Shown: piece by piece, positions 24,582 to 47,124 of the stretch
Numbering within the stretch: the stretch's first letter is position 1
How the letters are laid out: every line of letters starts with the position of its first letter
Origin: Actinomycetota bacterium
Lineage (GTDB): Bacteria > Actinomycetota > Actinomycetes > S36-B12 > UBA5976
Assembly (NCBI GenBank): GCA_947452755.1
Contig: CANGDT010000002.1
Span: 27,909 to 91,908, forward strand
Reading direction: 5' to 3'
DNA length: 64,000 nucleotides
Translations under genes and position numbers: made by a program
The notes under the pieces: generated by a model
The model's database searches: none
What the model was told of the DNA's origin: nothing
What the model saw: the letters and a program-made list of their open reading frames with translations, nothing else

Positions 24582-24619
24582 TACTTTTTAAATATTGAGA
24601 TTGCAGAGTAGAGGACATC

Positions 24620-25174: not shown

Positions 25175-25863
25175 GTGAAGTTACTCCTTCGAGCCTGCCA
25201 ATTCTCGATGTCACCACTGTGCGCACCGGAATGTTCGGTTCAACTGGATCAGGTGACACGTCAGGCTTCGGCGGTCTTGTCAGTGTTGTTCCAGTTCCTG
25301 CACCCTCACAACGTCCATTCGGAAGTTACTTCGATGCGATTGCCGAAGAGCTGAATGCAGCACTTCCAGAGTTTGGTTCGTCATTCGACAAAGCGATTGA
25401 AAAAGTAGTCATCGAGCACGATGAGATGACGCTCTACGTGCGCGCGTCAGAGCTCGTTGCGGTGGCCCGCACTTTACGCGACGAGCCAGGGTTACGTTTT
25501 GAATTGTGCCTCGGCGTAAACGGTGTTCACTACCCGAACCAAACCGGTCGCGAAATGCACGCGGTATATCAATTCCGTTCAATCACACACAATCGCAAAG
25601 TACGCGTTGAAGTTGCAGTTGCCGATTCACATCCGCACGTTCCATCGTTGATGTCGGTGTACCCAACTAATGACTGGCACGAACGTGAAACATTTGATTT
25701 CTTCGGCCTGATTTTCGATGGTCACCCGCATCTGACACGCATCCACATGCCAGATGACTGGGAAGGTCATCCACAGCGCAAGGACTACCCACTGGGTGGC
25801 ATTCCAGTCGAATACAAGGGTGCGACAATTCCACCGCCCGATACGCGGAGGTCATACAACTAA
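25171..25863 (+). CDS. nuoC: NADH-quinone oxidoreductase subunit C
   Basis: It has the 30-kDa subunit motif [12 protein letters not shown] and an ATGA overlap with nuoB. Confidence 0.95.
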
Positions 25864-27182: not shown

Positions 27183-27826
27183 TGTCGCTCACACAAGAAA
27201 CACGCGAGAAGGCTCGCGAAATCATTTCTCGTTACCCGCAGGCACGTTCAGCGCTTCTACCCATGTTGCACCTTGTGCAATCTGAAGAAGGCTTTGTAAG
27301 CGCCGACGGTATCGCCCTTTGTGCAGAGGAACTCGAACTCACAACTGCCGAAGTTGCTGCGGTTGCAACGTTCTACACCATGTACCACCGCAAGCCAGCT
27401 GGCGAATTCCATGTGGGTGTGTGCATCAACCCAGGCTGCGGGATTCTTGGCGGCGACGAAATTTGGAAGCGCGTGAGTGACCGCCTTGGCATCGGACACG
27501 ATGAAGTAACTGAAGATGGAAAAATCTCACTCGAGCGCATCGAATGCCAAGCAGCATGCACGCACGCACCAGTGATGACGGCGAACTGGGAATTCTTGGA
27601 CAACATGACACCAGAATCTGCCCTCGAAGTAATTGAAAAACTTTCACGCGGCGAAGAAGTACTCAGCACACGTGGTCCACGCGTTCGATCATTCAAAGAA
27701 AACGAATTGACGCTTGCTGGATTTGAAGATGAGCTTGTTGATTTTGGTCAAGCCGACGCAATGATGCTTGCTGGTTTGAACCGCGCCAAGGAACTCGGCC
27801 AGAGCGCACCGAAGGGAACACTGTGA
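27182..27826 (+). CDS. nuoE: NADH-quinone oxidoreductase subunit E
   Basis: It has the 24-kDa subunit 2Fe-2S cysteines (VCINPGC and ECQAAC). Confidence 0.9.
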   Translation: MSLTQETREKAREIISRYPQARSALLPMLHLVQSEEGFVSADGIALCAEELELTTAEVAAVATFYTMYHRKPAGEFHVGVCINPGCGILGGDEIWKRVSDRLGIGHDEVTEDGKISLERIECQAACTHAPVMTANWEFLDNMTPESALEVIEKLSRGEEVLSTRGPRVRSFKENELTLAGFEDELVDFGQADAMMLAGLNRAKELGQSAPKGTL

Positions 27827-29124
27827 CTCTCACACCCGTACTGACTGCACACTGGGACGAACCAGATTCGTACACGATTTCTGGCTACCAGCGTCACGGT
27901 GGCTACACCGCAGTTAAGAAAGCACTCAAGCAGGCACCTGATGACATCATCACGCTTGTTAAAGATTCCGGTCTTCGTGGTCGTGGTGGCGCAGGCTTCC
28001 CGACCGGTTTGAAGTGGAGCTTCGTTCCTCAGGGTGACGGCAAGCCGCACTACTTAGTTGTGAACGCTGACGAGTCAGAACCTGGTGCTTGCAAAGACAT
28101 TCCGTTGATGCTTTCAAACCCCCATTCATTAATTGAAGGCATCATCATTGCGTCATTCGCAATGCGTTCGAACAACGCATTCATTTATCTTCGTGGCGAA
28201 GTGCCACACGTTTTCCGTCGCGTAAACAGCGCGATTAAGGAAGCGTATGCAGCGGGGTACCTCGGAAAGAACATTCAAGGCTCAGGTTTTGATCTTGATG
28301 TTGTACTTCACGCGGGTGCAGGCGCTTACATCTGTGGTGAAGAAACAGCCCTGCTTGACTCACTCGAAGGTCGTCGCGGCCAGCCTCGTTTGAAGCCACC
28401 ATTTCCCGCGGTTGCGGGTCTGTACGCATCACCGTCATGTGTAAATAACGTTGAAACAATTGCGAACATTCCATACATTGTGAATAACGGTGTTGATTGG
28501 TTCCGTTCAATGGGAACAGAAAAGTCACCAGGCTTTAAGTTGTTCGCAGTTTCCGGTCACGTGAATCGTCCAGGAATTTACGAAGCTCCTTTGGGTATCA
28601 CAATGCGTGAACTTCTTGAGCATGCAGGTGGCGTACGCAACGGTCACAAGGTGAAGTTCTGGTTGCCAGGTGGGTCTTCGGTTCCCATGCTGACACCGGA
28701 CCTGCTCGATACTCCGTTGACTTATGAAGACATCGCTGCGGCAGGTTCCATGCTCGGAACTGGAACGCCGATGATCTTTGACGAGACCACGTCAGTGGTT
28801 CGCGCTGTCACTGGTTGGCTTGCGTTTTACAAGCACGAGTCATGCGGCAAGTGCACACCATGTCGTGAAGGCACGTACTGGCTCAGTGATGTACTTCATC
28901 GTCTTGAAGAGGGACACGGAACAGAAGCAGATCTCGACAAACTTGTTGAAGTATGCGCCCAGATTGCAGGCCGTTCGTTCTGCGCATTGGGCGATGCGGC
29001 AGCAACACCGTTCCCTGCTGCACTAAAGCACTTCCGTGAAGAGTTTGTCCAAGCAACCACCACGCCAGCTAACGAGTCGTTTGACCCGGCAGCAGCAACT
29101 GTCTTCGCAGGAGCTACCCGATGA
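27823..29124 (+). CDS. nuoF: NADH-quinone oxidoreductase subunit F
   Basis: It has the FMN/NADH site [13 protein letters not shown] and the 4Fe-4S motif [12 protein letters not shown]. Confidence 0.95.
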
Positions 29125-31343
29125 CCGTCACAACACAACTCGTTACCGTCACCGTTGATGGTGTGACTGTTGAAGTTCCAGCGGGCACATTGATTATTCG
29201 TGTTGCTGAAATGCTCGGCACTGCCATCCCGCGTTTTTGTGACCACCCACTTTTGGATCCCGTGGCAGCATGCCGCATGTGTCTGGTGGAAATCGAAGGT
29301 CAAGGAAAGCCACAGCCATCATGTGCTGTGACTGTCACTGACGGAATGATTGTTAAGACTCAGCACTCATCGGAAATGGCCGCAAAGGCACAGGCCGGTG
29401 TGATGGAGTTCCTCCTCATCAACCATCCGCTGGACTGCCCAATCTGCGACAAGGGCGGCGAATGCCCATTGCAAAATCAGGCAATGACTGCCGGTCAGGG
29501 CGAAACTCGTTTCGACGGCACCAAGCGCACTTTCCCCAAGCCAATCAACGTGAGTGCACAGGTGCTCCTTGACCGTGAGCGTTGCGTGTCATGTGCACGG
29601 TGCACACGTTTCGCTGACCAGATTGCTGGCGATCCGTTCATCTCGTTACTCGAGCGCGGCGCCAAACAACAGGTTGGTATCTCGTCTGATCAGCCATTCG
29701 ATTCATACTTCTCGGGTAACACAATTCAGATTTGCCCAGTTGGCGCATTGACGAGTGCGAAGTACCGTTTCCGTTCACGCCCATTCGACTTGGTGAGTTC
29801 ACCAACTGCATGTGAACATTGCGCCGCAGGTTGTGCACTTCGTACCGATGTTCGCCGCAATACTGTGATGCGTCGCCTTGCATGGGATGCTCCCGAAGTT
29901 AACGAAGAATGGAACTGCGACAAGGGTCGCTTTGCATTCCCATACTTGACCGATGGCCGTATTCAATCACCGCTTGTTCGTGATGAAGACGGCAACTTAA
30001 TTCCAGCCTCATGGCCAGAAGCACTTCGTGTTGCTGCTGCAGGTCTTAAGAAGAGTGGCGCATCGACCGCAGTTTTGACGGGTGGCCGTCTGACAAATGA
30101 AGATGCACTTGCTTACGCAGGGTTTGCTCGCAAGGTTCTTGGAACCAAGGATGTAGATTTCCGCGCACGCGCTGCCAGCGATGAAGAGACATCATTCTTG
30201 GCTCACCACGTCGCAGGTTCCGGCCTTGGCGTAACCTACGCGGATCTTGAGGCTGCGCCTTCGGTTCTCTTAGTTGGTTTTGAGCCAGAAGATGAATCTC
30301 CGATCGTGTTCTTGCGTTTGCGCAAGGCTGCGTTGAAGGGCGGCACAAAGGTATATGCAATTGCGCCGTTCTTGACTGCTGGCTTGGCAAAGATGAAGGG
30401 CACACTGATTGCCGCTTCACCGGCCGAAGAAGTTAATGCAATCGTTGGTGCAGCTGGCTATGTTCAGGATGCAGGCAGCATCGTTCTGGTCGGCGAGCGC
30501 GCAGCTCAGACACCAGGTTTGTTGACTGCGGTTTCGGCACTCGTCACATCAACTGGCGCGAAGTTGGCGTGGGTGCCGCGTCGCGCTGGCGAACGTGGCG
30601 CTCTGGATGCAGGCTTACTTCCAGTTGATGGTCGCAACACCACCGACATCATCAATGCACTTGGAAAAGACATCAAGGGTTTGCTGGTCGCTGGAGTTGG
30701 ATCCGATGACGTTGCTGCAGATATTGTCGCTGGTGCTGAACGTGCTGAATTCGTTGTATCACTGGAAACACGTCACACCGACATCACTGCAGTGGCCGAT
30801 GTTGTGCTTCCTGTTGCAGTCGTCACCGAGAAGTCAGGAACCTTCCGCAACTGGGAAGGTCGCGATCGTTCCTTTAATACGGTTGTACCGACACCTGGGG
30901 CATTGTCTGATGCAGAGGTTCTTGGCGAAATTGCGTCGGCGATGGGCGAGTTCTTTGGCGTAGATCCACAGTTCTGGAATTCTGCTGCAAAACCTGCGTC
31001 AGGTATTTCCGAACCTGCAGCTGCAAGCGTTGGTCAAGGTCAAGCATTGCTGAGCACTTGGCGTCACTTGTTAGACAACGGCACCTTGCAAGAAGGTGAG
31101 CCTTACTTGGCAGCGACTGCACGCATGGCCGTTGTTCGAGTTAGCCCGGCGACAGCAGCGAAACTCAACTTGGTTGATGGCGCCACTGCAACTGTTACTG
31201 CACATGGCCAATCGGCTAGTGCGCCAGTAATTGTGACGGTTGGAATGGCCGAAGACACAGTCTGGATTCCGGCCAACAGTGAAGGCTCTGCACTTGGTCT
31301 TCCAAGTGGAACCGTCGTGAACGTTTCAGGAGGTGCTGCATGA
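29121..31343 (+). CDS. nuoG: NADH-quinone oxidoreductase subunit G
   Basis: It has N-terminal Fe-S motifs ([33 protein letters not shown]) and a molybdopterin-oxidoreductase-like C-terminus. Confidence 0.95.
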
Positions 31344-32662
31344 ACATTCGTTCAGAAGCAGTAGGAGATCTCAGCACATTCGGCACCGACCCAATCGGTG
31401 TCGTGCTGGTCAAGGTGCTCGGCATCTTCGTGATTCTTGTCCTCTTAACGTTGTTGACCATTTGGGCAGAACGACGTGTTGTTGGCCGTATGCAGATGCG
31501 TATCGGTCCAAACCGCGTTGGACCATTTGGTTTGCTTCAGTCTTTGATGGACGGTGTAAAGCTCGCACTGAAGGAAGAAATCGTTCCAAAGGGTGTGCAC
31601 TACGCGGTCTATTGGCTAGCACCAGTGATTTCTGCTGGCGCTGCATTCTTGACCTTCGCAGTCATTCCACTCGGCCCGACAGTGTCGATGTTTGGACACA
31701 TCACTCCACTACAGCTCACTGACTTCCCAGTTTCTGTACTTTATGTTTTGGCGATTGCTTCAATCGGTATTTACGGCATTGTGCTCGGTGGTTGGGCTTC
31801 TGGCTCGACGTATCCGTTGCTCGGTGGCTTGCGTTCAAGTGCACAGATGATCAGTTACGAAATCGCGATGGGTCTTTCGTTTGTTGCGGTGTTCTTGTAC
31901 GCATCATCAATGTCAACTTCGCAGATTGTGGCTGGTCAAGAACATCTGTGGTACATCGTTTTGTTGTTCCCATCATTTGCAATTTATGCAACAGCAATGG
32001 TTGGCGAAACAAACCGCGCACCATTTGACTTGCCGGAAGCTGAAGGCGAACTCGTCGGTGGTTTCCAGACCGAATACTCGTCGTTGAAGTTTGCGCTGTT
32101 TTACCTAGCTGAATACGTGAACATGGTGACCGTTTCGGCAATGGCAACCACGCTATTCCTTGGTGGTTGGCGTGCACCGTACCCAATCTCGATGTGGTCA
32201 CAAGCAAACACAGGTTGGTGGCCACTGTTGTGGTTCTTCGGCAAAGTCTTCGCATTCCTTTTCGTATTCATTTGGTTGCGAGGCACACTTCCACGTATGC
32301 GTTACGACCAATTTATGAAGTTCGGCTGGAAGGTACTCATTCCAGTTTCAATAGCGTGGATCATGGTCGTGGCTGTTGCGCGTTACCTGCGTAATACGGG
32401 CGGCCTCGCATCACGCAACTTGTTGTTCATCGCGAGCGCAGTCCTTTTCGTAGTTGTTGTCGCTTCCTATGTCATGGAACTTCGCACTAAGAAGCGTGAA
32501 GAACTTGAACAAGAGCGTGCCGAGCTTGAAGCATCAGCAGAGTTCGATCCGTTTGCTGGCGGTTTCCCTGTCCCACCGATGCCAGGTCAAACACCTCAAG
32601 CGTCACGACGTATTCCAGTCACTGTTACTGCACCTGCAGTCGAGTCGGGCGAGGAGCAGTAA
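31340..32662 (+). CDS. nuoH: NADH-quinone oxidoreductase subunit H
   Basis: It is ND1-like, with the [15 protein letters not shown] motif. A roughly 90-aa charged C-terminal extension follows the last TM helix. Confidence 0.95.
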
Positions 32663-33205
32663 ATGCCTGTATTGCCACAAGTTGTTCGCGGGTTTGCGGT
32701 CACCTTCTTGTCGATGTTCAAGAAGGTCACGACAGAGCAGTACCCGGAAGAAAAAGATAAGTTTCCGCCGAAGCCTCGTTTTCACGGGCGTCACCAACTA
32801 AACCGTCACCCTGACGGTTTAGAAAAGTGTGTTGGTTGTGAACTATGTGCGTGGGCTTGCCCGGCAGATGCGATTTTGGTTGAAGGTGCCGACAACAGTG
32901 AAGAAGAACGTTTCTCACCAGGTGAGCGTTACGGTCGCGTCTACCAAATCAACTACGCACGTTGCATCCTGTGTGGTCTGTGCATCGAAGCATGCCCAAC
33001 CCGTGCACTAACAATGACTAATGATTTCGAGTTGGCTGAAAATTCACGCGCGAAGTTGATCTATGAAAAGCAAGATCTACTTGCCCCACTTTTGCCAGGT
33101 ATGGTCGCAGCACCACACGACATGGTCGAAGGAACAACCGAGCAGGATTATTACGCGGGCAACATCAAAGGTGCTTCAGCACCAGCAGGAGTTGACGAGT
33201 CGTGA
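32663..33205 (+). CDS. nuoI: NADH-quinone oxidoreductase subunit I
   Basis: It has two CxxCxxCxxxCP ferredoxin motifs ([12 protein letters not shown] and [12 protein letters not shown]). Confidence 0.95.
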
Positions 33206-33930
33206 ACGGTGAACAAATCGTTTTTTGGATCTGCGGAATATTTGCAGTCGTCGGCGCCTTGGGCATGATCATTTCGCGCAAGGCTGTTCACAGTGCGCTG
33301 TGGGTAGCTTTCACGATGATCAACCTGGCCATTCTCTACTTTTCGCAGCAGGCCGCTTTCTTGGGTACAACACAGATTGTTGTGTACACCGGCGCAGTCA
33401 TGATGTTGTTCTTGTTCGTGCTGATGATTGTCGGCGTTGATTCATCTGATTCATTGATCGAAACCATCAAGGGCCAGCGACTCATCGGAACGTTGCTTGC
33501 ACTTGCATTCGGCGGACTTCTTCTTGGAAGCATCACAAGCGTTGCTCGTCCAACTGTTGTCGGTTTGGACAAAGCAAATGAAGATTATGGAACAAACATC
33601 CAGGGACTTGCCCACTTGATCTTTGGCAAGTATCTGCTTGCCTTTGAAGTTACGTCAGCATTGCTGATTACTGCTGCTCTTGGCGCAATGGTGTTGGCGC
33701 ATCGTGAACGTTGGGAACCGCGCAAGACTCAGGCCGAACAGATGCGCGAACGCACCTTGTCAGGCCACCCAACACCACTGCCAAACCCTGGAGTTTTGGC
33801 TCGCAACAACTCAGTAGCGACGGCAGCCCTGCTTCCAGACGGCACACAATCACAGGAATCATTGCCCACAGCATTCAAGGCAATTGCCTCAGAAGATAGT
33901 GCTAGCAAGCCAAACGAGGTGACCCAGTGA
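33202..33930 (+). CDS. nuoJ: NADH-quinone oxidoreductase subunit J
   Basis: It is an ND6-like membrane protein in operon order, with a hydrophilic C-terminal extension. Confidence 0.9.
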
Positions 33931-34226
33931 ATCCGAATTACTACATTGCCTTAGCTGGCATTTTGTTCACGATCGGTGCACTCGGCGTTTTGATCCGCCG
34001 TAACGCAATCATCGTGTTCATGAGTGTCGAAATGATGTTGAACGCAGCAAACCTTGCCTTTGTTGCGGCAGCTCGCGAAACCGGAACGCTCGACGGTCAG
34101 GTTGCAGCATTTTTCGTCATGGTTGTGGCTGCGGCTGAAGTCGTTGTTGGTCTAGCCATCATCGTCACAATTTTCCGTTCACGTCGTTCGGCATCGATCG
34201 ACGAACCAAGTCTGCTGAAGTACTAG
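33927..34226 (+). CDS. nuoK: NADH-quinone oxidoreductase subunit K
   Basis: It is a 99-aa, 3-TM ND4L-like protein ([12 protein letters not shown]). Confidence 0.9.
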
Positions 34227-34237
34227 AGGGATAGGTC

Positions 34238-36097
34238 ATGACTGCCGCACTTATTGGGTTGCCGCTTCTCGGCGCAACCTTGCTCCTGCTCGGGGGCCGT
34301 CGCACTAATACATGGGGTCACTTCCTTGCCGTCGCAATGTCAGCAAGCTCGTTCTTCGTTGGCGTTGCGCTCTACATTCAAATGCTTGGTCGCAGTGCTG
34401 AAGAACGCGCCGTGGGTCAGCACCTATTCGACTGGATTGCAGTCGGTACTTTCAACGTGCCGTTTGGTTTACACCTCGACCAGTTGTCGATGTGTTTCGT
34501 TCTGCTGATCACTGGTGTCGGAACGCTGATTCACATTTACTCAATTGGTTACATGGAACACGATCCAAATCGTCGTCGTTTCTTTGCCTACTTGAACTTG
34601 TTCGTTGCAGCAATGTTGCTCTTGGTTCTTGCTGACAACTACTTGCTCCTTTACGTTGGTTGGGAAGGCGTGGGCCTTGCCTCGTACTTACTAATCAGCT
34701 TCTGGCAACACAAGCCGTCGGCAGCTGTTGCTGGCAAGAAGGCTTTCATTGTGAACCGTGTTGGTGACGTCGGTTTGTCACTTGCCGTCATGTTGATGTT
34801 CACGACATTAGGCACAGTAACTTTCCAGGGTGTAGCTGATGCTGCCGGACAGGGTCCGTCGCTGAAAATCACGCTTATTGGTTTTGCACTCCTTCTTGCT
34901 GCTTGCGGTAAGAGCGCCCAGTTCCCATTGCAGTCATGGTTGCTCGATGCGATGGAAGGCCCGACACCTGTTTCGGCATTGATTCACGCAGCGACCATGG
35001 TGACCGCAGGTGTTTACCTCATCATTCGTGCACATGCAATCTTTGACTTGTCACAGGATGCACGAACTGCGGTTGTAGTTATCGGTGCAATCACGCTGCT
35101 GCTCGGTGCATTTATTGGTACTGCCAAGGACGACATTAAGAAGGGCCTTGCAGGTTCAACCATGAGCCAAATTGGTTACATGATTCTTGCGGCTGGCCTT
35201 GGTCCAGTTGGATATGTATTTGCAATCTTCCACCTCCTTACTCACGGACTTTTCAAGGCTGGGTTGTTCCTCGGTGCAGGTTCGGTGATGCACGGCATGC
35301 ATGACGACGTGAACATGCGTCATTACGGTGCCCTGCGCACGTCAATGAAGATTACCTACGCAACATTCGGACTGGGATTCCTAGCAATCATTGGTATTCC
35401 ACCGTTTGCAGGTTTCTGGTCGAAGGATGAAATCATCAGCGCTGCGTTTGGCCAGAACTACCTTGTTGGTCTTGCCACTCTGATTGGTGCTGGCGTGACA
35501 GCGTTCTATATGACTCGCATGATGGCCATGACATTCTTTGGTGAATCACGTTGGGAAGATGGCGTTCATCCACATGAATCATCAACTGTGATGACGGCGC
35601 CAATGATGATCTTGGCTGTGGGTTCAGTATTTGGCGGTTTGCTGCTGAAATTCGTAGGCGACATTGAAGCGTGGCTTGAGCCAGTAACTGGTGTTGCGCA
35701 TCCGACGCACCCAATTTCTGCAGCAGTGCTGATTCCGGTCACACTCTTGGTCGTCGCATCAGGCGCTGGATATGCGTGGACAAAGTACGCGCAGCGCCCA
35801 GTTCCAGTCGTTGCTCCAACAGATGTCTCAATCCTCACGCGGGCAGCGCGTGCGGATGCCTACGGAGATGCAATCAACGAAGCGGTATTTATGCGTCCGG
35901 GTCTGCACCTGACTCGTGCATTGACCTGGTTTGATGCAAAGGGAATTGACGGAACTATCGGTGGCGTTTCGGCTGCTATCGGTGGACTTTCAGCACGTGC
36001 CCGTCGCCTTCAAAATGGCTACACACGTTCATACGCACTCACGATGCTCGGTGGAGCCGCGTTGATTGCATTCGTTCTACTCTTAGCGAGGCTCTAA
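34238..36097 (+). CDS. nuoL: NADH-quinone oxidoreductase subunit L
   Basis: It is an ND5/Mrp-antiporter-like protein of 619 aa ([12 protein letters not shown]). Confidence 0.95.
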
Positions 36098-36099
36098 TC

Positions 36100-37638
36100 A
36101 TGTCGTTAACTGCATTGATGTTGCTCCCTTTGATTGGAGCGGTAGTTGTCTTCGCACTTCCTGCTGGCCGTGACTTGTTGGCTAAGCAAGTGGCATTGGG
36201 CTTCGGACTGGTTGTTGCCGTCGCAGCAGTAGTCATGGGTCTTGGAATGGACAAGTCCAACGGCGGTCTTCAGTACGTAGAGAAGTACAGCTGGATTCCT
36301 TCGTTTGGAATTTCGTGGGGTCTTGGCGTTGACGGTATTTCAATTGTGTTGATCGTGATGGCTGCCGTAATGGTTCCACTAGTTTTCATCGCAGGCTGGA
36401 ATGATGTTGAAAACGCGGGACGTGGAACAGTTAAGGGTTTCTTCTCTCTCATGCTGCTTCTTGAAGTTTTCATGATTGGCGTTTTTGCAGCCACGGACTT
36501 GTTCTTGTTCTACGTGTTCTTCGAAGCAATGTTGATTCCGATCTATTTCTTGATCGGTCGTTTCGGTGGACCACAGCGCGCTTATGCGGCAATGAAGTTC
36601 TTGCTGTATTCACTCGTCGGTGGTCTATTTATGCTGGCTGCGTTGATTGGTCTGTACGTCGTTTCAGCGCGTGAACTCGGTGCTGGCACATTCGATTACA
36701 CCGCGCTGACCCAGCTACACATTGATCCAGCTACACAAAAGATGCTGTTCCTTGGCTTCTTCTTTGCCTTTGCCGTGAAGGCACCCATGGTGCCGTTCCA
36801 CACATGGTTGCCAGATGCCGCTGCTGAATCAACTCCAGGAACGGCAACACTTCTTGTCGGTGTTCTGGACAAGGTTGGAACATTCGGAATGATTCACTAC
36901 TTACTTCCAATTTTCCCTGATGCAAGCAAGTATTTTGCGCCGGCAATTATCACCCTCGCGGTTATCAGTATTTTCTATGGTGCGCTTCTCGCTATCGGCC
37001 AGTCAGACATGATGCGACTCGTTGCATTCTCATCGGTGTCACACTTTGGATTCATTGTGATGGGCATTTTTGCTTTCACATCACAAGGTTTATCTGGATC
37101 AACGTTGTACATGGTGAACCACGGTTTCTCGACTGGCGCACTATTCCTCGTAGTTGGTTACCTGTCATCACGTCGAGGATCCAAGAACATCGCCGATTTC
37201 GGTGGCGTACAAAAGGTCGCACCGATTATGGCCGGTGTGTTCCTGCTCGCAGGTCTGTCGTCCTTGGCACTGCCAGGTATGTCGAGCTTCGTGTCTGAGT
37301 TCTTAGTACTCGTTGGAACATTCAGCGAATACCCACAGGCCGCAAACATTGCGACAGTAGGCATTGTTCTAGCTGCGTTCTACATTTTGTGGATGTACCA
37401 GCGCACAATGACTGGGGAACCATCACAGGAAGTTTCTTCAACTGTGAACGAAATTTCGAAGCGCGAATTGGTTGCGATTGTTCCGATTATCGCGATCATC
37501 ATTGCGTTTGGTTTGTTCCCGCAGGGTTTGTTAAACATCATCAACCCGACCACAAAGCAAGTTCAATCAACTGTTCAAGTTGTGGATCCGGCTCCAGCCG
37601 TCCAAGGTTTGGCTTCAACTGAAGGGAGCGGTTCGTGA
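36100..37638 (+). CDS. nuoM: NADH-quinone oxidoreductase subunit M
   Basis: It is ND4-like, 512 aa, with the FFAFAVKAPMVPFHTWLPDA motif. Confidence 0.95.
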   Translation: MSLTALMLLPLIGAVVVFALPAGRDLLAKQVALGFGLVVAVAAVVMGLGMDKSNGGLQYVEKYSWIPSFGISWGLGVDGISIVLIVMAAVMVPLVFIAGWNDVENAGRGTVKGFFSLMLLLEVFMIGVFAATDLFLFYVFFEAMLIPIYFLIGRFGGPQRAYAAMKFLLYSLVGGLFMLAALIGLYVVSARELGAGTFDYTALTQLHIDPATQKMLFLGFFFAFAVKAPMVPFHTWLPDAAAESTPGTATLLVGVLDKVGTFGMIHYLLPIFPDASKYFAPAIITLAVISIFYGALLAIGQSDMMRLVAFSSVSHFGFIVMGIFAFTSQGLSGSTLYMVNHGFSTGALFLVVGYLSSRRGSKNIADFGGVQKVAPIMAGVFLLAGLSSLALPGMSSFVSEFLVLVGTFSEYPQAANIATVGIVLAAFYILWMYQRTMTGEPSQEVSSTVNEISKRELVAIVPIIAIIIAFGLFPQGLLNIINPTTKQVQSTVQVVDPAPAVQGLASTEGSGS

Positions 37639-39203
37639 ACAACACATTTGAATATGCAGCTCTCGCACCTGTAGTCATCCTGCTGAGTGCTGGTGTTATT
37701 TCCATGTTGATCGAAGCATTTGCCCCTCGTGATACTCGGCGGGCCCTTGAACTCACTTTGGTCTTTGCAACACTTGCAGTGGCTTTCGCATACGTTGGCA
37801 TCAACATGGCCAAGGAGATTCCCGGCGGTGCACCACTGAATGGTGGACAGTCGCATGGAATCCGCCAGCTTGCCGCAGGTGGCGCTGCTGCTATTGATGG
37901 GCCAGGTCTTTTCCTCCAAGGAACGCTGCTGTTGGTTGCATTTGTTGCAGCCCTGCTCTTGGCAGAACGCGGCATTGATCCCCAAGGTGATGCTTTTGCT
38001 GCCCGCGCGTCAACGCTTCCCGGTAGTGAAGATGAGCGTCAGTTCACCGCACAGGGATGGTTCCAGACCGAAATCTGGCCACTGTTCTTATTCAGTGTTG
38101 GTGGGATGCTCCTTTTTGTTATTGCAAACGACTTCCTGACCATGTTTGTTGCGTTAGAAGTACTGTCCCTGCCGTTGTATTTGCTGGCAGGAATGGCAAG
38201 ACGCCGTCGTCTGTTGAGCCAAGAGGCGGCCCTAAAGTACTTCGTACTCGGCGCATTCTCAAGTGCATTTTTCTTGTTCGGTTCCGCGTTGATTTACGCA
38301 GTAACTGGAGCTTTGGATTTCAGCACAATTAATGCCTCACTTGGTAACGTCACTCAAGATGGTTTGGTACTTGCCGGTGTCGGATTAATTGCGGTCGGTT
38401 TGTTGTTCAAGGTTGGCGCTGTGCCGTTCCACCAGTGGACTCCAGATGTGTATCAAGGTTCACCAACTCCGATTACTGCATTCATGGCAGCAGCCACCAA
38501 GATTGCCGCATTTGGCGCCATGTTCCGTGTGTTCTATGTCGCGTTCAGTGGCATGCGCTGGGATTGGCGCCCAATGATGTGGGTAATCGCAATTTTGTCG
38601 ATGCTGATTGGTTCAGTCATTGCGGTGACACAAACAGACATTAAGCGAATGTTGGCTTTCTCTTCAGTGGCACACACCGGATTTATTCTGTTGGGCCTCA
38701 TCGCAACCAGCGGTCACGGTTTGTCTGCAACTTTGTTCTACTTGTTCGCTTACGGATTCACCACACTTGGTTCCTTTGCGATTGTGTCGCTTGTTCGCGA
38801 TGCTTCAGGTGAAGCAACGCACTTGTCCCAATGGGCTGGGCTTGGGAAGAAATCGCCAGTTGTGGCAACAGTGTTTGCCTTCTTCTTGCTTGCACTGGCT
38901 GGTATCCCACTAACAAGTGGTTTCACGGCAAAGTTTGCGATCTTTACTGCTGCAATTGAAGGGGGTGCAACACCGCTGGTTATCGTGGCGGTTGTTGCCA
39001 GCGCTATTGCTGCATTCTTCTACGCTCGAGTCATTGTGCTGATGTTCTTTACAGAGCCACCAGTTGATGGTCCAAGCGTCGTAGTGCCAAGTTCGTTAAC
39101 GTCTGCAGCGATTGCTATCAGCGCAGTCATCACATTGATCTTGGGCGTATTCCCGCAGCCAATTCTCGATGCAGTGGCTAACGCAGGATTGTTCGTTCGC
39201 TAA
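37635..39203 (+). CDS. nuoN: NADH-quinone oxidoreductase subunit N
   Basis: It is ND2-like, 522 aa (LFKVGAVPFHQWTPDVYQG), and is the last gene of the operon. Confidence 0.95.
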   Translation: MNNTFEYAALAPVVILLSAGVISMLIEAFAPRDTRRALELTLVFATLAVAFAYVGINMAKEIPGGAPLNGGQSHGIRQLAAGGAAAIDGPGLFLQGTLLLVAFVAALLLAERGIDPQGDAFAARASTLPGSEDERQFTAQGWFQTEIWPLFLFSVGGMLLFVIANDFLTMFVALEVLSLPLYLLAGMARRRRLLSQEAALKYFVLGAFSSAFFLFGSALIYAVTGALDFSTINASLGNVTQDGLVLAGVGLIAVGLLFKVGAVPFHQWTPDVYQGSPTPITAFMAAATKIAAFGAMFRVFYVAFSGMRWDWRPMMWVIAILSMLIGSVIAVTQTDIKRMLAFSSVAHTGFILLGLIATSGHGLSATLFYLFAYGFTTLGSFAIVSLVRDASGEATHLSQWAGLGKKSPVVATVFAFFLLALAGIPLTSGFTAKFAIFTAAIEGGATPLVIVAVVASAIAAFFYARVIVLMFFTEPPVDGPSVVVPSSLTSAAIAISAVITLILGVFPQPILDAVANAGLFVR

Positions 39204-40225: not shown

Positions 40226-40382
40226 TGTGAATTTCCAAGTAACGTACAAGGTTTGCTAGGACTTGGTTAAGAGACGGCAAACCTTCGCATTTTGGCTTGT
40301 TTTGAACAGTTCTTGCGAGCATTCTGAAGGTAGCGGTTTACACCATGGGGTGTGAACGCCCACATTAAAGGAATTGGTTTCA

Positions 40383-41364: not shown

Positions 41365-42297
41365 ATGACATCAGCTTCCGTACGTGAGCCCCGCACTGAA
41401 GTTGCCAAGGGCACAATCTACGGATTCTCTGCGTATCTCATTTGGGGCATCGTTCCCATCTACTGGCCCAAGCTACAGCCGGCTCGACCACTTGAAATTT
41501 TGAGCCATCGCATCATCTGGAGTTTAGTTTTCCTGATTGGTGTCATTGTCATACAGAAGAAATCAGATCGAGTTATTTCAATCCTGCGGAACCGACGACA
41601 AATAGGTTTGCTAGCACTTGCTTCCGTGTTGATTGCTGTGAACTGGGGACTGTTTATCTGGTGCAGCGTCAATGGGCATCTACTCGATTCCTCATTGGGA
41701 TACTTCATCACGCCACTTGTCAGTGTCGGCTTTGGTGTTGTGTTCTTTAAAGAAAAATTACGCACCATCCAGTGGGTGGCACTGTCCATTGCTGCGGGTG
41801 CGGTCGTGTACCTGACCATTGCAATGGCCAAAGCGCCGACTGTCGCCATTGCACTTGCATTCACATTTGGAATTTATGGATACGTGAAGAAGCTCGCCAA
41901 TGTGGATGCAATTGAAAGCCTGACAGTGGAGACTCTGTTACTAGCCCCAGTGGCACTCGGATATTTGGCTTGGCTAGCTTCAAAGGGCGAGAACACATTT
42001 TTTGCTCATGGTGTGACTCATTCAATGTGGTTGGCAAGCGCTGGGGTGGTAACGGCAATTCCGCTTTTGATGTTTGGCGCTGCTGCAATTCGTGTCCCAT
42101 TGTCGACGCTGGGTATGTTGCAGTACTTGGGTCCAACGCTTCAATACTTTATTGGGCTCTACATGTTCAACGAAATCATGTCGCCGGCACGCTTTCACGG
42201 ATTCGTAATTACGTGGGTCGCGCTTATTATCTTGTCGATTGATGGGTGGCGCCATCGATCAAGTGTGACAAAAGACTTCGTTCCAGATATGGACTAA
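41365..42297 (+). CDS. rarD: EamA/RarD-family permease
   Basis: It is a 10-TM DMT-superfamily protein whose N-terminus (GTIYGFSAYLIWGIVPIYW) is typical of RarD. Confidence 0.8.
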   Translation: MTSASVREPRTEVAKGTIYGFSAYLIWGIVPIYWPKLQPARPLEILSHRIIWSLVFLIGVIVIQKKSDRVISILRNRRQIGLLALASVLIAVNWGLFIWCSVNGHLLDSSLGYFITPLVSVGFGVVFFKEKLRTIQWVALSIAAGAVVYLTIAMAKAPTVAIALAFTFGIYGYVKKLANVDAIESLTVETLLLAPVALGYLAWLASKGENTFFAHGVTHSMWLASAGVVTAIPLLMFGAAAIRVPLSTLGMLQYLGPTLQYFIGLYMFNEIMSPARFHGFVITWVALIILSIDGWRHRSSVTKDFVPDMD

Positions 42298-43355
42298 CTA
42301 ACTTGCCAGGTGTCCTTGCCTGTGAGCAGTGTCTGTAAGTCGCCGGCACCCTTTGCGGTTGCTGTTTCTATTTGATTGCGCACTAGGCGGTCATACGAAG
42401 GTCGCTTGATATCTCGGAAAATACCAATGGGTGTGTCCTGCAAAGTCTCCGGATGCGACAGGCGGGACAACGCAAATGCAAATGCTGGATCTTCTGCATG
42501 CGCATCGTGGGTGACAATGTCTTCAGCTGCTACGTCATTCACGCTGGCAACACGAAGCGTTCCATTGTGGTCACGCACAACACAGCGATCGCTGTTTGCG
42601 CCAAAAACAATCTTTTCGCCGTGAACCAAACGCATCGTGACATCATCGCGAGTGTCGGCGTCCTTCATTGGATCCCACGCACCATCGTTGAATATATTGC
42701 AGTTTTGGTAAATCTCAATCAACGCGGTGCCTTCGTGTTCAGCAGCAGCGCGAAGCACAGACTGCAGATGTTGACGATCGCTATCGACTGAACGGGCTAC
42801 GAAAGTGGCTTCAGCGCCAAGGGCGACAGAAACGGGATTGAATGGGTAATCCAATGAACCAAGCGGTGTGGTCTTGGTGATTTTGCCCATTTCCGAAGTC
42901 GGGGAGTATTGACCCTTTGTCAGACCATAGATGCGGTTGTTGAACATCAAAATCTTCAGGTTCACGTTTCGGCGTAGCGCGTGAATCAAATGGTTACCAC
43001 CGATAGACAGCGCGTCACCATCACCAGTAACTACCCAAACTGACAAGTCTGGACGCGAAACTGAAAGACCAGTCGCAATCGCAGGTGCGCGACCGTGTAT
43101 CGAGTGAACGCCGTAGGTGTTCATGTAGTACGGGAAGCGACTTGAGCAGCCAATGCCTGAAACGAAAACGATGTTTTCTTTCTTCACGCCTAGTTCAGGC
43201 ATGAATCCCTGGACGGCGGCAAGAATTGCGTAGTCACCGCAACCGGGGCACCAACGAACTTCTTGATCGGTTTTGTAATCCTTCGCGGACTGCTTTTCGT
43301 CGGACTTGGGTACGAGGTCAAGCGAGGCAAATGTGTTAGACACCTTCAACCACAT
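42294..43355 (-). CDS. korB: 2-oxoglutarate:ferredoxin (2-oxoacid:acceptor) oxidoreductase beta subunit
   Basis: It has the ThDP-binding beta-subunit motifs WCPGCGDYAIL and GDGDALSIGGNH. It overlaps the korA stop. Confidence 0.9.
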   Translation of the reverse strand: MWLKVSNTFASLDLVPKSDEKQSAKDYKTDQEVRWCPGCGDYAILAAVQGFMPELGVKKENIVFVSGIGCSSRFPYYMNTYGVHSIHGRAPAIATGLSVSRPDLSVWVVTGDGDALSIGGNHLIHALRRNVNLKILMFNNRIYGLTKGQYSPTSEMGKITKTTPLGSLDYPFNPVSVALGAEATFVARSVDSDRQHLQSVLRAAAEHEGTALIEIYQNCNIFNDGAWDPMKDADTRDDVTMRLVHGEKIVFGANSDRCVVRDHNGTLRVASVNDVAAEDIVTHDAHAEDPAFAFALSRLSHPETLQDTPIGIFRDIKRPSYDRLVRNQIETATAKGAGDLQTLLTGKDTWQVS

Positions 43356-45219
43356 CCTTAATTGCGTCCATTAGTTCTTGGGTTTTGAAAGGTAATCCGC
43401 GCACTTGGTTGTAGCCAATGGCATCGACGAGGTACTTCGCACGAAGCATCATCGATAGTTGGCCAAGGTTCATTTCAGGAACGATGACTTTCTCGTACTT
43501 TTTCAATTCCTCGCCAGTGTTTGCCGGGAACGGATTCAAGTGACGCAAATGAGCGTGTGCCACATCGAACCCCTCGAGACGAAGTCGGCGGCAAGCTGAT
43601 TCAACAGGACCATATGTAGAGCCCCAGCCAATGACGAGGACCTTTGCTTTACCGCTTGGGTCTTCAACTTTGAGTGGCTCGATGGTCTTGGCGATTCCAT
43701 CAATCTTTGCTTGACGAATGCGCACCATAAAATCGTGATTGGCCGGGTCGTATGAAATGTTGCCGGTGCCATCTTGTTTTTCAATGCCACCGATGCGATG
43801 TTCTAGACCAGCAACACCTGGTATTGCCCAAGGGCGAGCCAAAGTCTCTGGATCGCGCTTAAACGGCCAGAACACTTCGGTGCCATCGGGCATGGTGTGG
43901 TTCGGGCCGTCGGCAAATTTCACATGCAGATCGGGCAAAGCACTCACGTCGGGGACATGCCATGGTTCAGAACCATTTGCCAAGTATCCATCGGAGAGAA
44001 GGAACACTGGTGTGCGATAAACCGTCGCGATGCGTACTGCTTCAATTGCTGCATCAAAGCAGTCAGCAGGAGACTGTGGCGCAACGATTGGCACGGGTGC
44101 TTCACCGTTGCGTCCATACATTGCCTGCAGGAGGTCTGCTTGCTCGGTCTTTGTTGGCAAGCCTGTTGACGGTCCACCACGCTGAACATCAACGATGACA
44201 AGTGGTAATTCGAGAGCAACTGCCAGACCGATTGCTTCACTCTTGAGTGCAACACCTGGTCCAGAAGTTGTAGTGACACCAAGCATGCCCGCGTAGCTTG
44301 CACCAAGCGCAGCACCAATGCCAGCAATTTCATCTTCAGCCTGGAATGTACGCACACCAAAGTTTTTGTGCTTGCTCAGTTCATGCAAGATATCGGAAGC
44401 CGGGGTGATTGGGTATGAGCCAAGGAAGATTGGAAGATCAGCGCGCACAGATGCGGCAATAAGACCGTATGACAGAGCGAGGTTGCCGCTGATGTTGCGG
44501 TACGTTCCGGCGGCCATTGGAGCAGGCTTGACCGCAAATTGATTTGGAAAACTTTCAGTTGTTTCGCCAAAGCTCCAACCAGCCTGCAGCGCAGCAATAT
44601 TGGCAGCCAAAATTTCAGGCTTCTTGCCGAACTTTGCATTTAAGAAAGCAATAGTCGGTTCAATTGGTCGAGTAAACATCCACAACAGCACACCAAGTGC
44701 AAACATGTTCTTGGATCGTTCAGCATCTTTCTTGGTGATATCAAAATCTTTAAGTGCTTCAACAGTCATAGAAGTCAGCGCGATGGGGTGAACGTTGTAT
44801 CCATCGAGGCTGCCATCCTCGAGCGGGTTAGACGCGTAACCGACTTTGGTCATTGCGCGTTCGGAAAACTCATCCGTATTCACGATTAAGTCGCCACCGG
44901 GACGAAGTTCCTTCAAATTTGATTTCAAGGCTGCAGGGTTCATGGCTACAAGTACGTGAGCCTGATCGCCTGGAGTCATGATGTCGTGATCGCCGAAGTG
45001 CAGTTGGAACGCACTGACACCAGGCATAGTTCCGGCTGGTGCGCGGATCTCGGCGGGGAAGTCTGGAAGTGTGGTGAGGTCGTTTCCAAAGGCTGCAGTG
45101 GTTGAAGTGAACTGGTCACCAGTGAGCTGCATGCCGTCGCCGGAGTCGCCTGCAAAACGGATACTTACCTGGTCTAGTTCAACTATTTCTTTAGTCACGT
45201 GACCGCGCGTCCTTTGCAT
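43336..45219 (-). CDS. korA: 2-oxoglutarate:ferredoxin (2-oxoacid:acceptor) oxidoreductase alpha subunit
   Basis: The N-terminus IRFAGDSGDGMQLTGDQFT and the 627-aa alpha/gamma fusion are typical of actinobacterial KorA. Confidence 0.9.
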   Translation of the reverse strand: MQRTRGHVTKEIVELDQVSIRFAGDSGDGMQLTGDQFTSTTAAFGNDLTTLPDFPAEIRAPAGTMPGVSAFQLHFGDHDIMTPGDQAHVLVAMNPAALKSNLKELRPGGDLIVNTDEFSERAMTKVGYASNPLEDGSLDGYNVHPIALTSMTVEALKDFDITKKDAERSKNMFALGVLLWMFTRPIEPTIAFLNAKFGKKPEILAANIAALQAGWSFGETTESFPNQFAVKPAPMAAGTYRNISGNLALSYGLIAASVRADLPIFLGSYPITPASDILHELSKHKNFGVRTFQAEDEIAGIGAALGASYAGMLGVTTTSGPGVALKSEAIGLAVALELPLVIVDVQRGGPSTGLPTKTEQADLLQAMYGRNGEAPVPIVAPQSPADCFDAAIEAVRIATVYRTPVFLLSDGYLANGSEPWHVPDVSALPDLHVKFADGPNHTMPDGTEVFWPFKRDPETLARPWAIPGVAGLEHRIGGIEKQDGTGNISYDPANHDFMVRIRQAKIDGIAKTIEPLKVEDPSGKAKVLVIGWGSTYGPVESACRRLRLEGFDVAHAHLRHLNPFPANTGEELKKYEKVIVPEMNLGQLSMMLRAKYLVDAIGYNQVRGLPFKTQELMDAIKDVVEGV

Positions 45220-45320
45220 CGATTTTCCGTGTTCATTTTCGCACTGTTTGACTCCGAATGAGTGGTCGGGTGGGGTTTATCTCGTATAGCGGAATGTGAT
45301 GTGTGCCCTAGAGTCGTGCT

Positions 45321-45746
45321 GTGAGCGAATTGGGTCAATCAGCAGTGCCGGTAACGGTCATTGAGGCTGGCCTGGCCTGTTGTGGTGTCGAGGCTGGTTC
45401 CGTCGATTTTGTGACCAACCCCTTGATTAACCCCTCCCTAGAAATGCCGTGGATAAAGGTAGAAGCATCGGGTGACACACACATTCTGGTGATTGCCGGA
45501 ACCGTAACGCATGCACTAGCCCCCAGTGTGAAAGCCGCATTCGACGCATTGGCCGAGCCGCGGGTTGTGATTGCGTTTGGCGCATGTGCCATCACGGGTG
45601 GTCCGTATTGGGATTCGTATTCAGTTGTCCCTGGTGCCGACCACGTGGTGCCGGTGGATATTCATGTACCCGGGTGTCCACCGAGCCCGCAGGAATTAGG
45701 GACCGCAATATATGCCGCAGCGCAACGCGTAGAGGCAGCCCGATGA
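45321..45746 (+). CDS. NuoB-family (complex I 20-kDa / hydrogenase small-subunit-like) paralogue
   Basis: The 141-aa protein aligns by eye to the canonical NuoB in this window. All four N2-cluster Cys are retained (GLACCGVE, GACAITGG, VPGCPP). Confidence 0.8.
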   Translation: MSELGQSAVPVTVIEAGLACCGVEAGSVDFVTNPLINPSLEMPWIKVEASGDTHILVIAGTVTHALAPSVKAAFDALAEPRVVIAFGACAITGGPYWDSYSVVPGADHVVPVDIHVPGCPPSPQELGTAIYAAAQRVEAAR

Positions 45747-46228
45747 TTTTTTCAACGGAATTAATCGCAAGTGAATTGCGCGACGGTTCGCACTGGATTG
45801 TGGTGTCGAACGACAATTGGGTAGCCGTTCATCGAGAACTCGCTTCACTGTATCCACGTTTTGAGTGGCTCACCGCTGTTCACCACGAGGATGACAACTT
45901 CGCCATCACCACAATGGTGTCGACTGCGGACTTATCTGAGTCCGTCGTCACTTCAGCCAGAGTTGCGGGTGAATGTGCATCGCTCGTTGAAATATTTGCA
46001 CAGTCAGATTTCTACGAACGTGAAGTCATTCAAATGTTCGGCGTCACGATTGGCGATGGTGATCGCAGGAAAGCTTTCGACGTTGAATTCCCTGGACACC
46101 CCTTACGTAGAGATTTTGCCTTGACGCCTCGCCAGGAAACGCAATGGCCAGGTGCGGTCGAACCTGACGCCAACGCACGACGCCGACCATCACTTGCCCC
46201 TGGTGTGTTTGCAGAGTGGAAGTCATGA
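45743..46228 (+). CDS. NuoC-family (complex I 30-kDa) paralogue, short form
   Basis: The ATG at 45743 forms an ATGA overlap with the NuoB-like stop and has AGAGG 7 nt upstream. The motif DFYEREVIQMFG...FPGHPLRRDF parallels the canonical [12 protein letters not shown]...[10 protein letters not shown]. Confidence 0.75.
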   Translation: MIFSTELIASELRDGSHWIVVSNDNWVAVHRELASLYPRFEWLTAVHHEDDNFAITTMVSTADLSESVVTSARVAGECASLVEIFAQSDFYEREVIQMFGVTIGDGDRRKAFDVEFPGHPLRRDFALTPRQETQWPGAVEPDANARRRPSLAPGVFAEWKS

Positions 46229-46632
46229 CAGAACTCAATCCGCACGCAACAATTGCGCTTCATCCCGCTTCATGCACATCGTGCATGTTGTGTGTCCGTG
46301 AATGCCCGGACTGGTGCATCACAGTGGATGCGCATTCGGAACCTGACGAAGATGCACCTCAGTACAGCAACGCACGTCGCCAATCAATGAAGAACGTACT
46401 TGACGAATTTACGATTGATTTTGGAAAGTGCATGTGGTGTGGAATCTGTATAGATGTGTGCCCGTTTGATGCACTCTTTTGGTCGAGCACCCAAATGCCA
46501 GCGGCAACATCTCGCGAGGAACTGATCTTTGACGTCAATCAGCTTGCTGCATCATTGCCGGATGCCCGCCGAAACGACGGCTCACCGGCGCCGCAGATTG
46601 ATGAACCACCAAGTGGTCGTCGAAAGAAATAG
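46216..46632 (+). CDS. NuoI-like 2x[4Fe-4S] ferredoxin-domain protein
   Basis: CTSCMLCVRECP and CMWCGICIDVCP are separated by a long insert, as in NuoI. The F-x-I-D-x-x-x-C context matches canonical NuoI. It overlaps the NuoC-like gene by 13 nt. Confidence 0.75.
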   Translation: MEVMTELNPHATIALHPASCTSCMLCVRECPDWCITVDAHSEPDEDAPQYSNARRQSMKNVLDEFTIDFGKCMWCGICIDVCPFDALFWSSTQMPAATSREELIFDVNQLAASLPDARRNDGSPAPQIDEPPSGRRKK

Positions 46633-47124
46633 TTAGCGGTAGTTCTGATACTGAACGGCAAAATCCAGTTCAGCGTCGGCGAGAAGTTTTTGAACTTCCT
46701 GCAAATCATCGCGGCTTTTGCCGGTCACACGAAGTTCGTCACCTTGAATCTGGGTTTTCACATTCTTGGGACCTTCATCGCGAATAAGTTTGCCGATTTT
46801 CTTCGCCTGTTCTTGGCTAATCCCAGCGTTAAAGTCGCAGTTGATTTTGTATTCCTTGCCAGACACACGAGGGTCGCCAGCTTTAAGCGCCTTAAGGCTC
46901 ACACCGCGCTTAATAAGTTTTTCACGAAACACTTCGAGTGCAGCCTTAACACGATCTTCGGTAGATGAAGTCAGTTCTACGCCGAGTTCACCCTTCCACT
47001 CGATAGTGGTGTCAGTGCCTTTGAAGTCAAAACGTGTAGTCAGTTCCTTGGCGGCTTGCTGAAGCGCATTGTCCGCTTCTTGACGGTCCACTTTGCTGAC
47101 GATGTCCATGCTTGAATCGGCCAT
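46633..47124 (-). CDS. yajQ: YajQ-family nucleotide-binding protein (UPF0234)
   Basis: The 163-aa protein has the typical YajQ sequence ([18 protein letters not shown]...RFDFKG). Its stop abuts the stop of the convergent NuoI-like gene with no spacer. Confidence 0.8.

Follow-up and report, generated by a model that had tools for sequence, protein, structure and literature searches.

A NuoB-NuoC-NuoI trio beside korAB is a membrane-less remnant of the actinobacterial nuo2 cluster and a candidate Fe-S relay

Three overlapping complex I-type genes lie divergent from korAB

We analyzed a 64-kb stretch of DNA (64,000 nucleotides, referred to as the window) from an Actinomycetota bacterium (assembly GCA_947452755.1, contig CANGDT010000002.1), which carries three genes for paralogs of the complex I subunits NuoB, NuoC and NuoI, here termed B2, C2 and I2. 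This trio is a membrane-less, NuoD-less form of nuo2, a known but uncharacterized gene cluster of actinobacteria. Its three open reading frames (ORFs) at 45321-46632 on the forward strand are intact and overlap each other: the stop codon of B2 and the start codon of C2 share an ATGA, and a second such overlap joins the C2 stop codon to the ATG of I2 at 46225. The cluster cysteines are complete, with four in B2 and eight in I2. The initial annotation of this DNA had proposed three translationally coupled genes, including a 141-residue B2 with four N2-type cysteines and a 161-residue C2, which is borne out by the ORFs, hidden Markov model (HMM) searches and the ATGA overlaps. For the third gene it had given 138 residues, counted from an alternative start at GTG 46216. 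Here, the two cluster motifs and the long insert between them hold, the gap being 40 residues versus 33 in the canonical NuoI of the window, while the start codon had to be revised. Most probably, I2 begins at ATG 46225 and comprises 135 residues, because the recorded gene calls use this codon and it is conserved in homologs. The features of the locus and its flanks are listed below with their strand and the evidence for each.

24276..39203 (+): canonical nuoA-N operon, complete (profile matches)
41365..42297 (+): EamA transporter gene, synteny marker (Pfam, loci of relatives)
42294..43355 (-): korB, thiamine pyrophosphate (TPP) and [4Fe-4S] β subunit (Pfam/NCBIfam)
43336..45219 (-): korA, α/γ subunit of a two-subunit 2-oxoacid:acceptor oxidoreductase (TIGR03710 at 673 bits; Pfam POR, POR_N, PFOR_II)
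45220..45320 (no strand): divergent spacer between korA and B2, 101 bp (ORF ends)
45309..45314 (+): -10-like hexamer TAGAGT, putative promoter of a leaderless mRNA, 6 nt before the B2 GTG (conserved geometry)
45321..45746 (+): B2, NuoB/PSST-like [4Fe-4S] subunit, 141 residues, nuo2 B2 ortholog (Pfam/NCBIfam, PDB matches)
45378..45383 (+): codons of the tandem Cys20-Cys21 of B2, N2-type cluster ligands (invariant in alignments)
45585-45587 and 45675-45677 (+): codons of Cys89 and Cys119 of B2, further ligands of the same cluster
45743..46228 (+): C2, NuoC/30-kDa-like scaffold subunit, 161 residues (Pfam, structure model, Foldseek)
46073..46225 (+): C-terminal arm of C2, residues 111-161, PLRRDFAL..R..WPGAVEPD.NARRRPSLAPGV..EW (invariant columns; nuo2-specific)
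46225..46632 (+): I2, NuoI/TYKY-like 2x[4Fe-4S] subunit, 135 residues from ATG 46225 (HMM matches, homolog alignment)
46273..46308 (+): first cluster motif of I2, CTSCMLCVRECP (CxxCxxCxxxCP pattern)
46429-46464 (+): second cluster motif of I2, CMWCGICIDVCP (CxxCxxCxxxCP pattern)
46603..46629 (+): basic C-terminal tail of I2, EPPSGRRKK (invariant in Nanopelagicales)
46633..47124 (-): yajQ (DUF520), convergent, conserved synteny marker of the nuo2 locus (Pfam, loci of relatives)

The stop codon of I2 (ending at 46632) directly abuts that of the convergent yajQ (from 46633), leaving no spacer at all, and a hairpin resembling a terminator was not detected there. The sole NuoD of the window lies at 25863-27182 within the canonical nuo operon, and the 64 kb contain no second set of membrane subunits.

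All three proteins score below the NCBIfam cut-offs for their complex I counterparts. B2 matched Pfam Oxidored_q6 (PF01058) with 75.4 bits (gathering score 27) and fell short of the NuoB models (NF005012, 108.4 versus 116 bits; TIGR01957, 105.9 versus 142.7 bits). Its PDB matches were the complex I subunit PSST with 88 bits, HycG with 63 bits and MbhJ with 56 bits. C2 matched Complex1_30kDa (PF00329) with 55 bits (cut-off 22.5), reached 44.1 bits versus a cut-off of 122.45 for NuoC_fam, and keeps the core motifs HERE..MFG and PLR[KR]D common with canonical NuoC. The best NCBIfam matches of I2 were NuoI models, yet TIGR01971 gave 58.4 bits versus a cut-off of 113. Only ~15 residues precede the first cysteine of I2, which thus lacks the N-terminal helix of NuoI (GLxxT...YPE). 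I2 and the canonical NuoI are the only 2x[4Fe-4S] proteins encoded in the 64 kb.

An AlphaFold2 (AF2) model of C2 reached a predicted local distance difference test (pLDDT) score of >90 for residues 1-100, and the top Foldseek match was the complex I subunit NuoC (8qby_C; E-value 2e-8, template modeling (TM) score 0.60). The C-terminal arm was predicted to be disordered in isolation (pLDDT <50), as expected for a segment that would become ordered on a partner.

Identity to the window's own NuoB, NuoC and NuoI amounts to 37% for B2, 32% for C2 and 30% for I2, and values of merely 30-37% rule out a recent duplication of canonical nuoB, nuoC and nuoI. An origin from group 4 [NiFe]-hydrogenases (Mbh/Ech/Hyc) was likewise considered and ruled out, as B2 is nearer to PSST and no hydrogenase-type large subunit is encoded with it. 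Judged from these matches, the trio paralogs are old and of complex I rather than hydrogenase type.

The trio derives from the ten-gene nuo2 cluster

In a profile search of 1.84 billion representative proteins, the B2 family formed one 50% cluster, scoring 222 bits. Setting aside an artefactual repeat protein (177 bits), scores then dropped to 130-149 bits, a tier of NuoB-like proteins from high-GC actinobacteria that share the B2 signature SGGPYWDSY, which reads SGGMFNNY in canonical NuoB. In Pedococcus dokdonensis, Janibacter melonis and Flexivirga endophytica, the corresponding genes form a full ten-gene cluster with the order A2-B2-C2-H2-I2-J2-K2-L2-M2-N2, located as follows.

Pedococcus (locus L045): 9645-18529, full nuo2 cluster
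Janibacter (locus L047): 9645-18215, full nuo2 cluster
Flexivirga (locus L130): 9600-18438, full nuo2 cluster

None of the three full clusters encodes NuoE, F or G, and NuoD, the 49-kDa subunit of the quinone site, is not encoded anywhere near them. An M48 peptidase gene follows them or lies nearby. The C2 arm, in the form WPG..EP..RRR..PGV..W, is common to full-nuo2 and trio-only C2 proteins across actinobacteria and is not found in canonical NuoC. I2 shares with its nuo2 counterparts the core CTSCMLC.RECPDWCI...NVLD.F.IDF..CM.CGIC..VCPFDAL.WS, and the C2 and I2 proteins of Pedococcus carry the same arm and core motifs as those of the window. The gene order is shared as well: nuoN, polyprenyl synthase, EamA and korBA, then nuo2 or the trio, the M48 peptidase gene and yajQ, of which only the M48 gene is absent in the window. 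Because signature motifs, gene contexts and synteny are all shared, our comparisons show the window trio to be orthologous to B2, C2 and I2 of nuo2, with all seven membrane subunits lost in Nanopelagicales. Genes for A2, H2 and J2-N2 were found neither in the window nor within 10 kb of the trio in ~40 Nanopelagicales loci.

Thus, the trio is not the orphan it was initially taken for, but the remnant of a ten-gene cluster, and its ancestors did belong to a second complex. The accompanying claim that no NuoD or membrane subunit is encoded with it holds in the window and ~60 related loci; a NuoD homolog was detected in none of these ~60 trio or nuo2 loci. Compared with nuo2 of Streptomyces, the trio has orthologous B2, C2 and I2 with the same motifs and the same place by korAB, M48 and yajQ, and NuoD, E, F and G are missing from both. 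It differs in lacking A2, H2 and J2-N2 and in its shorter subunits (141, 161 and 135 residues versus about 200, 176 and 180-220).

The cluster is known from Streptomyces as nuo2 (S. coelicolor SCO4599-4608; S. ambofaciens nuoA2...N2), where its function has been called unclear and a separate nuoD2 has been reported for S. ambofaciens. A Streptomyces paper describes nuo2 as lacking NuoC, yet the homologous full clusters analyzed here hold a NuoC-like gene. Our literature searches found no description of a NuoB-NuoC-NuoI module lacking NuoD and a membrane arm.

Reduced nuo2 loci form a natural deletion series

The related loci cover successive stages of reduction. Three nuo2 clusters are decaying (L049, L131, L132), and reduction to B2-C2-I2 is seen in Nanopelagicales, in Austwickia, in Microbispora (with I2 4 kb away) and in L048, a 2-Mb metagenomic contig. 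Five more metagenomic loci have been cut down to the same three genes (L050, L051, L056, L097, L104). In several soil actinobacterial contigs (L065-L072, L086), nuo2 has been wholly excised, so that the M48 peptidase gene and yajQ abut korA and korAB is kept. In a neighbor-joining tree, B2 proteins of full clusters form a tight, slow-evolving clade that includes the L046 and L048 trios, and all other trio-only B2 proteins sit on long branches. This pattern implies at least two independent reductions and faster evolution after the membrane arm was lost. Actinobacteria outside Nanopelagicales account for at least two such events. A ~660-residue neighbor of the trio that had appeared conserved in L046, L048 and L133 was dropped, as the proteins are not homologous to each other.

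The series further distinguishes three features. First, B2 proteins of canonical and full-nuo2 clusters have the N-terminus WGRRxSLWxxxFGLACC (..SLWP..FGLACC in canonical NuoB), which is absent in the window B2. Second, they have the loop RxDFxRxG...PRQAD (RxDxxRFG...SPRQxD in canonical NuoB), likewise absent there, and hydrophobic residues following the CC motif (EMM or EFI), which are the polar EAG or ESS in derived trios. Third, the N-terminal GLxxT...YP helix of I2, present in canonical and full-nuo2 proteins, is lost in derived trios, including that of the window. All three features are still present in the recently reduced L046 and L048. In complex I structures, these segments of NuoB and NuoI seat on NuoH and NuoA and line the quinone cavity. 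The clusters, SGGPYWDSY and the C2 arm are kept everywhere. The transition from full cluster through recent trio to derived trio is thus a natural deletion experiment for nuo2, which separates features that depend on the membrane arm from those that do not, namely SGGPYWDSY, the C2 arm and all clusters.

The trio is maintained under purifying selection in Nanopelagicales

Homologs of B2 and C2 are plentiful in freshwater metagenomes. A scan with a C2 profile, using one genome per species, gave 36 actinobacterial loci, and those named to order are metagenome-assembled genomes (MAGs) of Nanopelagicales, the most abundant order of freshwater bacterioplankton; one locus, L042, belongs to a more distant MAG. 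The order B2-C2-I2 is found in each of the 36 loci as far as the contig reaches, commonly preceded by nuoN, polyprenyl synthase and EamA. A convergent yajQ comes after the trio in all loci with a close, visible downstream flank; it was not detected at L042 and L007.

Of 41 extracted loci, 40 show all four B2 cysteines unchanged, the exception being the N-terminally truncated L014, and all eight I2 cysteines are invariant wherever I2 is complete (it runs off the contig end in L031 and L042). The C2 arm is near-invariant, with the consensus PLRRDFAL..R..WPGAVEPD.NARRRPSLPPGV..EW. The I2 tail EPPSGRRKK is the same in practically every Nanopelagicales locus (L017 has D in place of E) and absent from high-GC relatives; overall, I2 identity across Nanopelagicales ranges from 72 to 84%. 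Pairwise ratios of nonsynonymous to synonymous substitution rates (dN/dS), calculated by the NG86 method for pairs with a dS of 2.5 or less, were ~0.06-0.08 for B2, 0.17-0.20 for C2 and 0.02 for I2, values that are approximate as dS lies near saturation. These alignments and substitution rates show that the trio is kept intact, translationally coupled and under strong purifying selection in ~40 Nanopelagicales species. The expectation of functional paralogs whose orthologs have not lost their cysteine ligands was therefore correct, and part of the Q-module can apparently live on its own, kept under strong selection without NuoD or a membrane arm.

The truncated case is found in MAG WB6_1B_195 (L014, 9627-9929), where the B2 ORF lacks the tandem-cysteine N-terminus, the sole such case among ~40 loci. 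A frameshift or an error in the assembly could account for it, as could a true loss.

A putative leaderless-type promoter precedes B2

The hexamer TAGAGT ahead of B2 had been read as a TANNNT element of a leaderless mRNA, and comparison with relatives supports this. Each of the 34 distinct upstream sequences from homologous loci has a TANNNT hexamer (TAGAGT, TAAAGT or TACGCT) 6-7 nt ahead of a GTG or ATG that is in frame, compared with a control rate of 1.7% for arbitrary start-like triplets in the window. The geometry holds whatever lies further upstream; in loci without korAB, the hexamer overlaps the stop codon of EamA. A TANNNT hexamer closely ahead of the start codon is the geometry of leaderless transcripts in actinobacteria, as seen in mycobacterial maps of transcription start sites. 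A generic scan for sigma-70 promoters and terminators returned nothing relevant at the trio, the former because the trio promoter has no -35 consensus. Thus, the trio mRNA is probably leaderless and transcribed from its own promoter, which also backs GTG 45321 as the start of B2.

The link to korAB is ancient but not obligatory

The 101-bp spacer at 45220-45320, across which B2 and korA diverge, is as initially described. Both in the window and in its nearest relatives, korBA lies either divergently next to the trio or nuo2 or less than 5 kb away. This linkage recurs in five Nanopelagicales species genomes (L007, L016, L017, L029, L038), in Microbispora and Janibacter, in L048, L049, L131 and L132, and in ten KorA-centered metagenomic contigs. 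A scan of metagenome contigs for close korA relatives yielded identities of 61-75% only, mostly from soil. No ferredoxin (Fer4) domain was detected in KorAB by Pfam, and I2 is the sole ferredoxin-type protein encoded near korAB in the 64 kb. The physiological acceptor of the actinobacterial (mycobacterial) 2-oxoglutarate:ferredoxin oxidoreductase (KOR) was not identified by Baughn et al. (2009), in agreement with the premise of the initial annotation. KorA and Nuo2 proteins have both been reported at higher levels in S. coelicolor than in S. lividans.

I2 resembles the δ subunit PorD/KorD and polyferredoxins in being a 2x[4Fe-4S] protein beside a 2-oxoacid oxidoreductase that lacks a ferredoxin domain. 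However, its matches to the δ-subunit models stay below the cut-offs (PorD_KorD TIGR02179, 34 versus 60 bits; OGOR_delta NF042987, 30.6 versus 125 bits), its descent from NuoI is clear, and B2 and C2 always accompany it.

Several observations weigh against an obligatory link between korAB and the trio. The trio is kept without korAB at the locus in 27 of 32 informative Nanopelagicales genomes, with dN/dS values as low or lower, and in Austwickia, Pedococcus and Flexivirga korBA is absent from the surrounding 10 kb. Conversely, several actinobacteria keep korBA with nuo2 deleted. Moreover, published acI genomes use an enzyme of the 2-oxoglutarate dehydrogenase (OGDH) type. Adjacency alone is weak evidence, because the whole region is an ancient syntenic block. 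Across the loci compared, the link to korAB is therefore ancient and not obligatory: the linkage proposed earlier stands through its recurrence in Microbispora, Janibacter and metagenomic contigs, and KorAB cannot be an obligatory partner.

On this basis, KorAB might be the best single candidate partner of the trio in the window genome, an assignment that we regard as possible though doubtful. On the unlikely side is the stronger version, in which B2-C2-I2 would be a dedicated KorAB acceptor, the full nuo2 wiring 2-oxoglutarate oxidation into a complex I-like, proton-pumping enzyme with a borrowed NuoD and the form found in streamlined freshwater actinobacteria acting as a soluble low-potential relay. 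If true, the trio would be the "missing ferredoxin" of the aerotolerant two-subunit actinobacterial KOR. In any case, the recurrent divergent arrangement of korBA and nuo2 supplies a directly testable candidate for the KOR acceptor.

The trio may act as a soluble Fe-S relay

With these comparisons at hand, we propose that the trio, a nuo2 remnant, could work as a soluble three-[4Fe-4S] relay clamped by C2, a reading we consider evenly poised between right and wrong. B2 and I2 appear to have shed the segments that hold NuoB and NuoI on NuoH and NuoA and line the quinone channel. Through loss of these anchor segments, the trio would no longer be a membrane-bound quinone reductase, but a soluble or loosely peripheral heterotrimer. 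The two [4Fe-4S] clusters of I2 and the one of B2 would lie in series like N6a-N6b-N2 of complex I, and C2 with its invariant C-terminal arm would clamp the two Fe-S subunits together. The assembly would then relay electrons through three clusters and amount to a large ferredoxin; it would neither reduce quinone nor pump protons, nor would it be swapped in for complex I subunits. Speculatively, KorAB would be its likeliest partner in the window genome, in a partnership that cannot be exclusive, as korAB is not next to the trio in most relatives.

Known systems share parts of this layout. The Q-module of complex I (NuoB/C/D/I) has the same folds and families and the same N2, N6a and N6b ligands, but the trio lacks NuoD, the membrane arm and the N-module, and without NuoD it has no quinone site. 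Eleven-subunit relatives devoid of NuoEFG, such as the cyanobacterial and chloroplast NDH-1 and Fpo-type complexes, resemble the trio in having no NADH-oxidizing module. Their likely site of ferredoxin input is the NuoI-type subunit. These complexes keep NuoD and the whole proton-pumping arm, whereas the trio keeps neither.

The relay reading has to be weighed against several points. C2 retains the NuoC core motifs, so that a NuoD-type partner in trans is conceivable; in complex I, NuoC packs mainly against NuoD. Our view covers the 64 kb of the window and, in relatives, flanks reaching at most 10 kb, and partners could be encoded elsewhere. AF2 modeled B2 with low confidence (mean pLDDT 59), too poorly for a fold search, and the near-saturation of dS limits the precision of the selection estimates.

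The retained core motifs of C2 also fit a hybrid complex I, in which B2, C2 and I2 would take the places of NuoB, NuoC and NuoI, and of the NADH module as well, on the canonical NuoD and membrane arm, yielding a proton-pumping menaquinone reductase driven by ferredoxin or KorAB. As NuoD is never part of nuo2, even the full cluster has to borrow one or go without, and most Nanopelagicales loci with a visible upstream flank, like the Austwickia locus, have the canonical nuo operon directly upstream. The Streptomyces authors, too, suggested a hybrid nuo/nuo2 machinery. However, the membrane-arm segments of B2 and I2 decay after the nuo2 membrane genes have gone, where selection should have kept them if the proteins docked, and the EMM/EFI after the CC motif has become the polar EAG/ESS. 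Docking onto the canonical membrane arm, as initially envisaged for the trio, thus appears unlikely.

Improbable in our judgment is a non-catalytic role, with the trio serving as an assembly or maintenance factor or as an Fe-S redox sensor for complex I or Fe-S homeostasis, and its proximity to korAB being inherited synteny. It would accommodate the retention of the trio without korAB in most Nanopelagicales and Austwickia, the ancient syntenic block of nuo, polyprenyl synthase, EamA, korBA, nuo2, M48 and yajQ, and a promoter that looks constitutive and has no conserved upstream operator. Yet the trio keeps its 12 cluster cysteines and the inter-cluster geometry of NuoI, with dN/dS down to 0.02, as expected of an active electron-transfer chain. 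Furthermore, we know of no bacterial complex I assembly factor that is a paralog of NuoB, NuoC or NuoI.

That NuoD-type and membrane subunits encoded elsewhere in the genome complete a conventional second complex seems highly improbable. The orthologs do belong to a ten-gene membrane complex in other actinobacteria, nuoD2 stands apart in S. ambofaciens, and only 64 kb of the genome are in view. On the other hand, nuo2 membrane genes, where present, are always contiguous with B2, C2 and I2, none lies within the 10-kb flanks in Nanopelagicales, and the motifs common to canonical and full-nuo2 B2 and I2 have been lost. In addition, descriptions of streamlined genomes in the literature report a single NADH:quinone oxidoreductase. 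Finally, although L049, L131 and L132 are clearly decaying and the L014 B2 is truncated, the chance that the trio consists of decaying pseudogenes of nuo2 is virtually nil, as this is refuted by intact overlapping ORFs in ~40 species, invariant cysteines and motifs, dN/dS of 0.02-0.2 and the conserved promoter.

Further features of the window

Upstream of nuo, the window holds an island of respiration and menaquinone genes at 2795-23120, so that the trio sits in a long quinone and respiratory block. The island includes the following genes.

2795-4318: ResB
5567-6502: UbiA/MenA-like
6517-7812: AMP-ligase, MenE-like
9853-11499: TPP-type, MenD-like
19134-20330: cytochrome P450
20378-21685: isochorismate synthase

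On the other side of the trio, 0.7 kb past yajQ, a type-II NADH dehydrogenase (Pyr_redox_2 and NDH2_C) is encoded at 47837-49060 (+); this neighborhood is kept in many Nanopelagicales loci, and the gene directly follows yajQ in L011 and L025. Three ORFs had no Pfam match at an E-value of 1e-5 or better: 11545-12918 (-), 21720-23120 (+) and 40374-41243 (+), with 457, 466 and 289 residues, respectively. The 289-residue ORF is flanked by polyprenyl synthase and EamA, and L025 has a weak homolog (35%) in the same place. Rfam matched two adjacent tRNA genes at 49310-49381 and 49413-49486 (+), its sole matches in the window. A 983-residue ORF at 15685-18636 (-) has an unusual architecture that combines APH-type phosphotransferase, Peptidase_M23 and class-III aminotransferase domains. 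Lastly, a MerR-family regulator with a B12-binding_2 domain at 56931-57878 (+) is LitR/CarH-like and possibly light-responsive.

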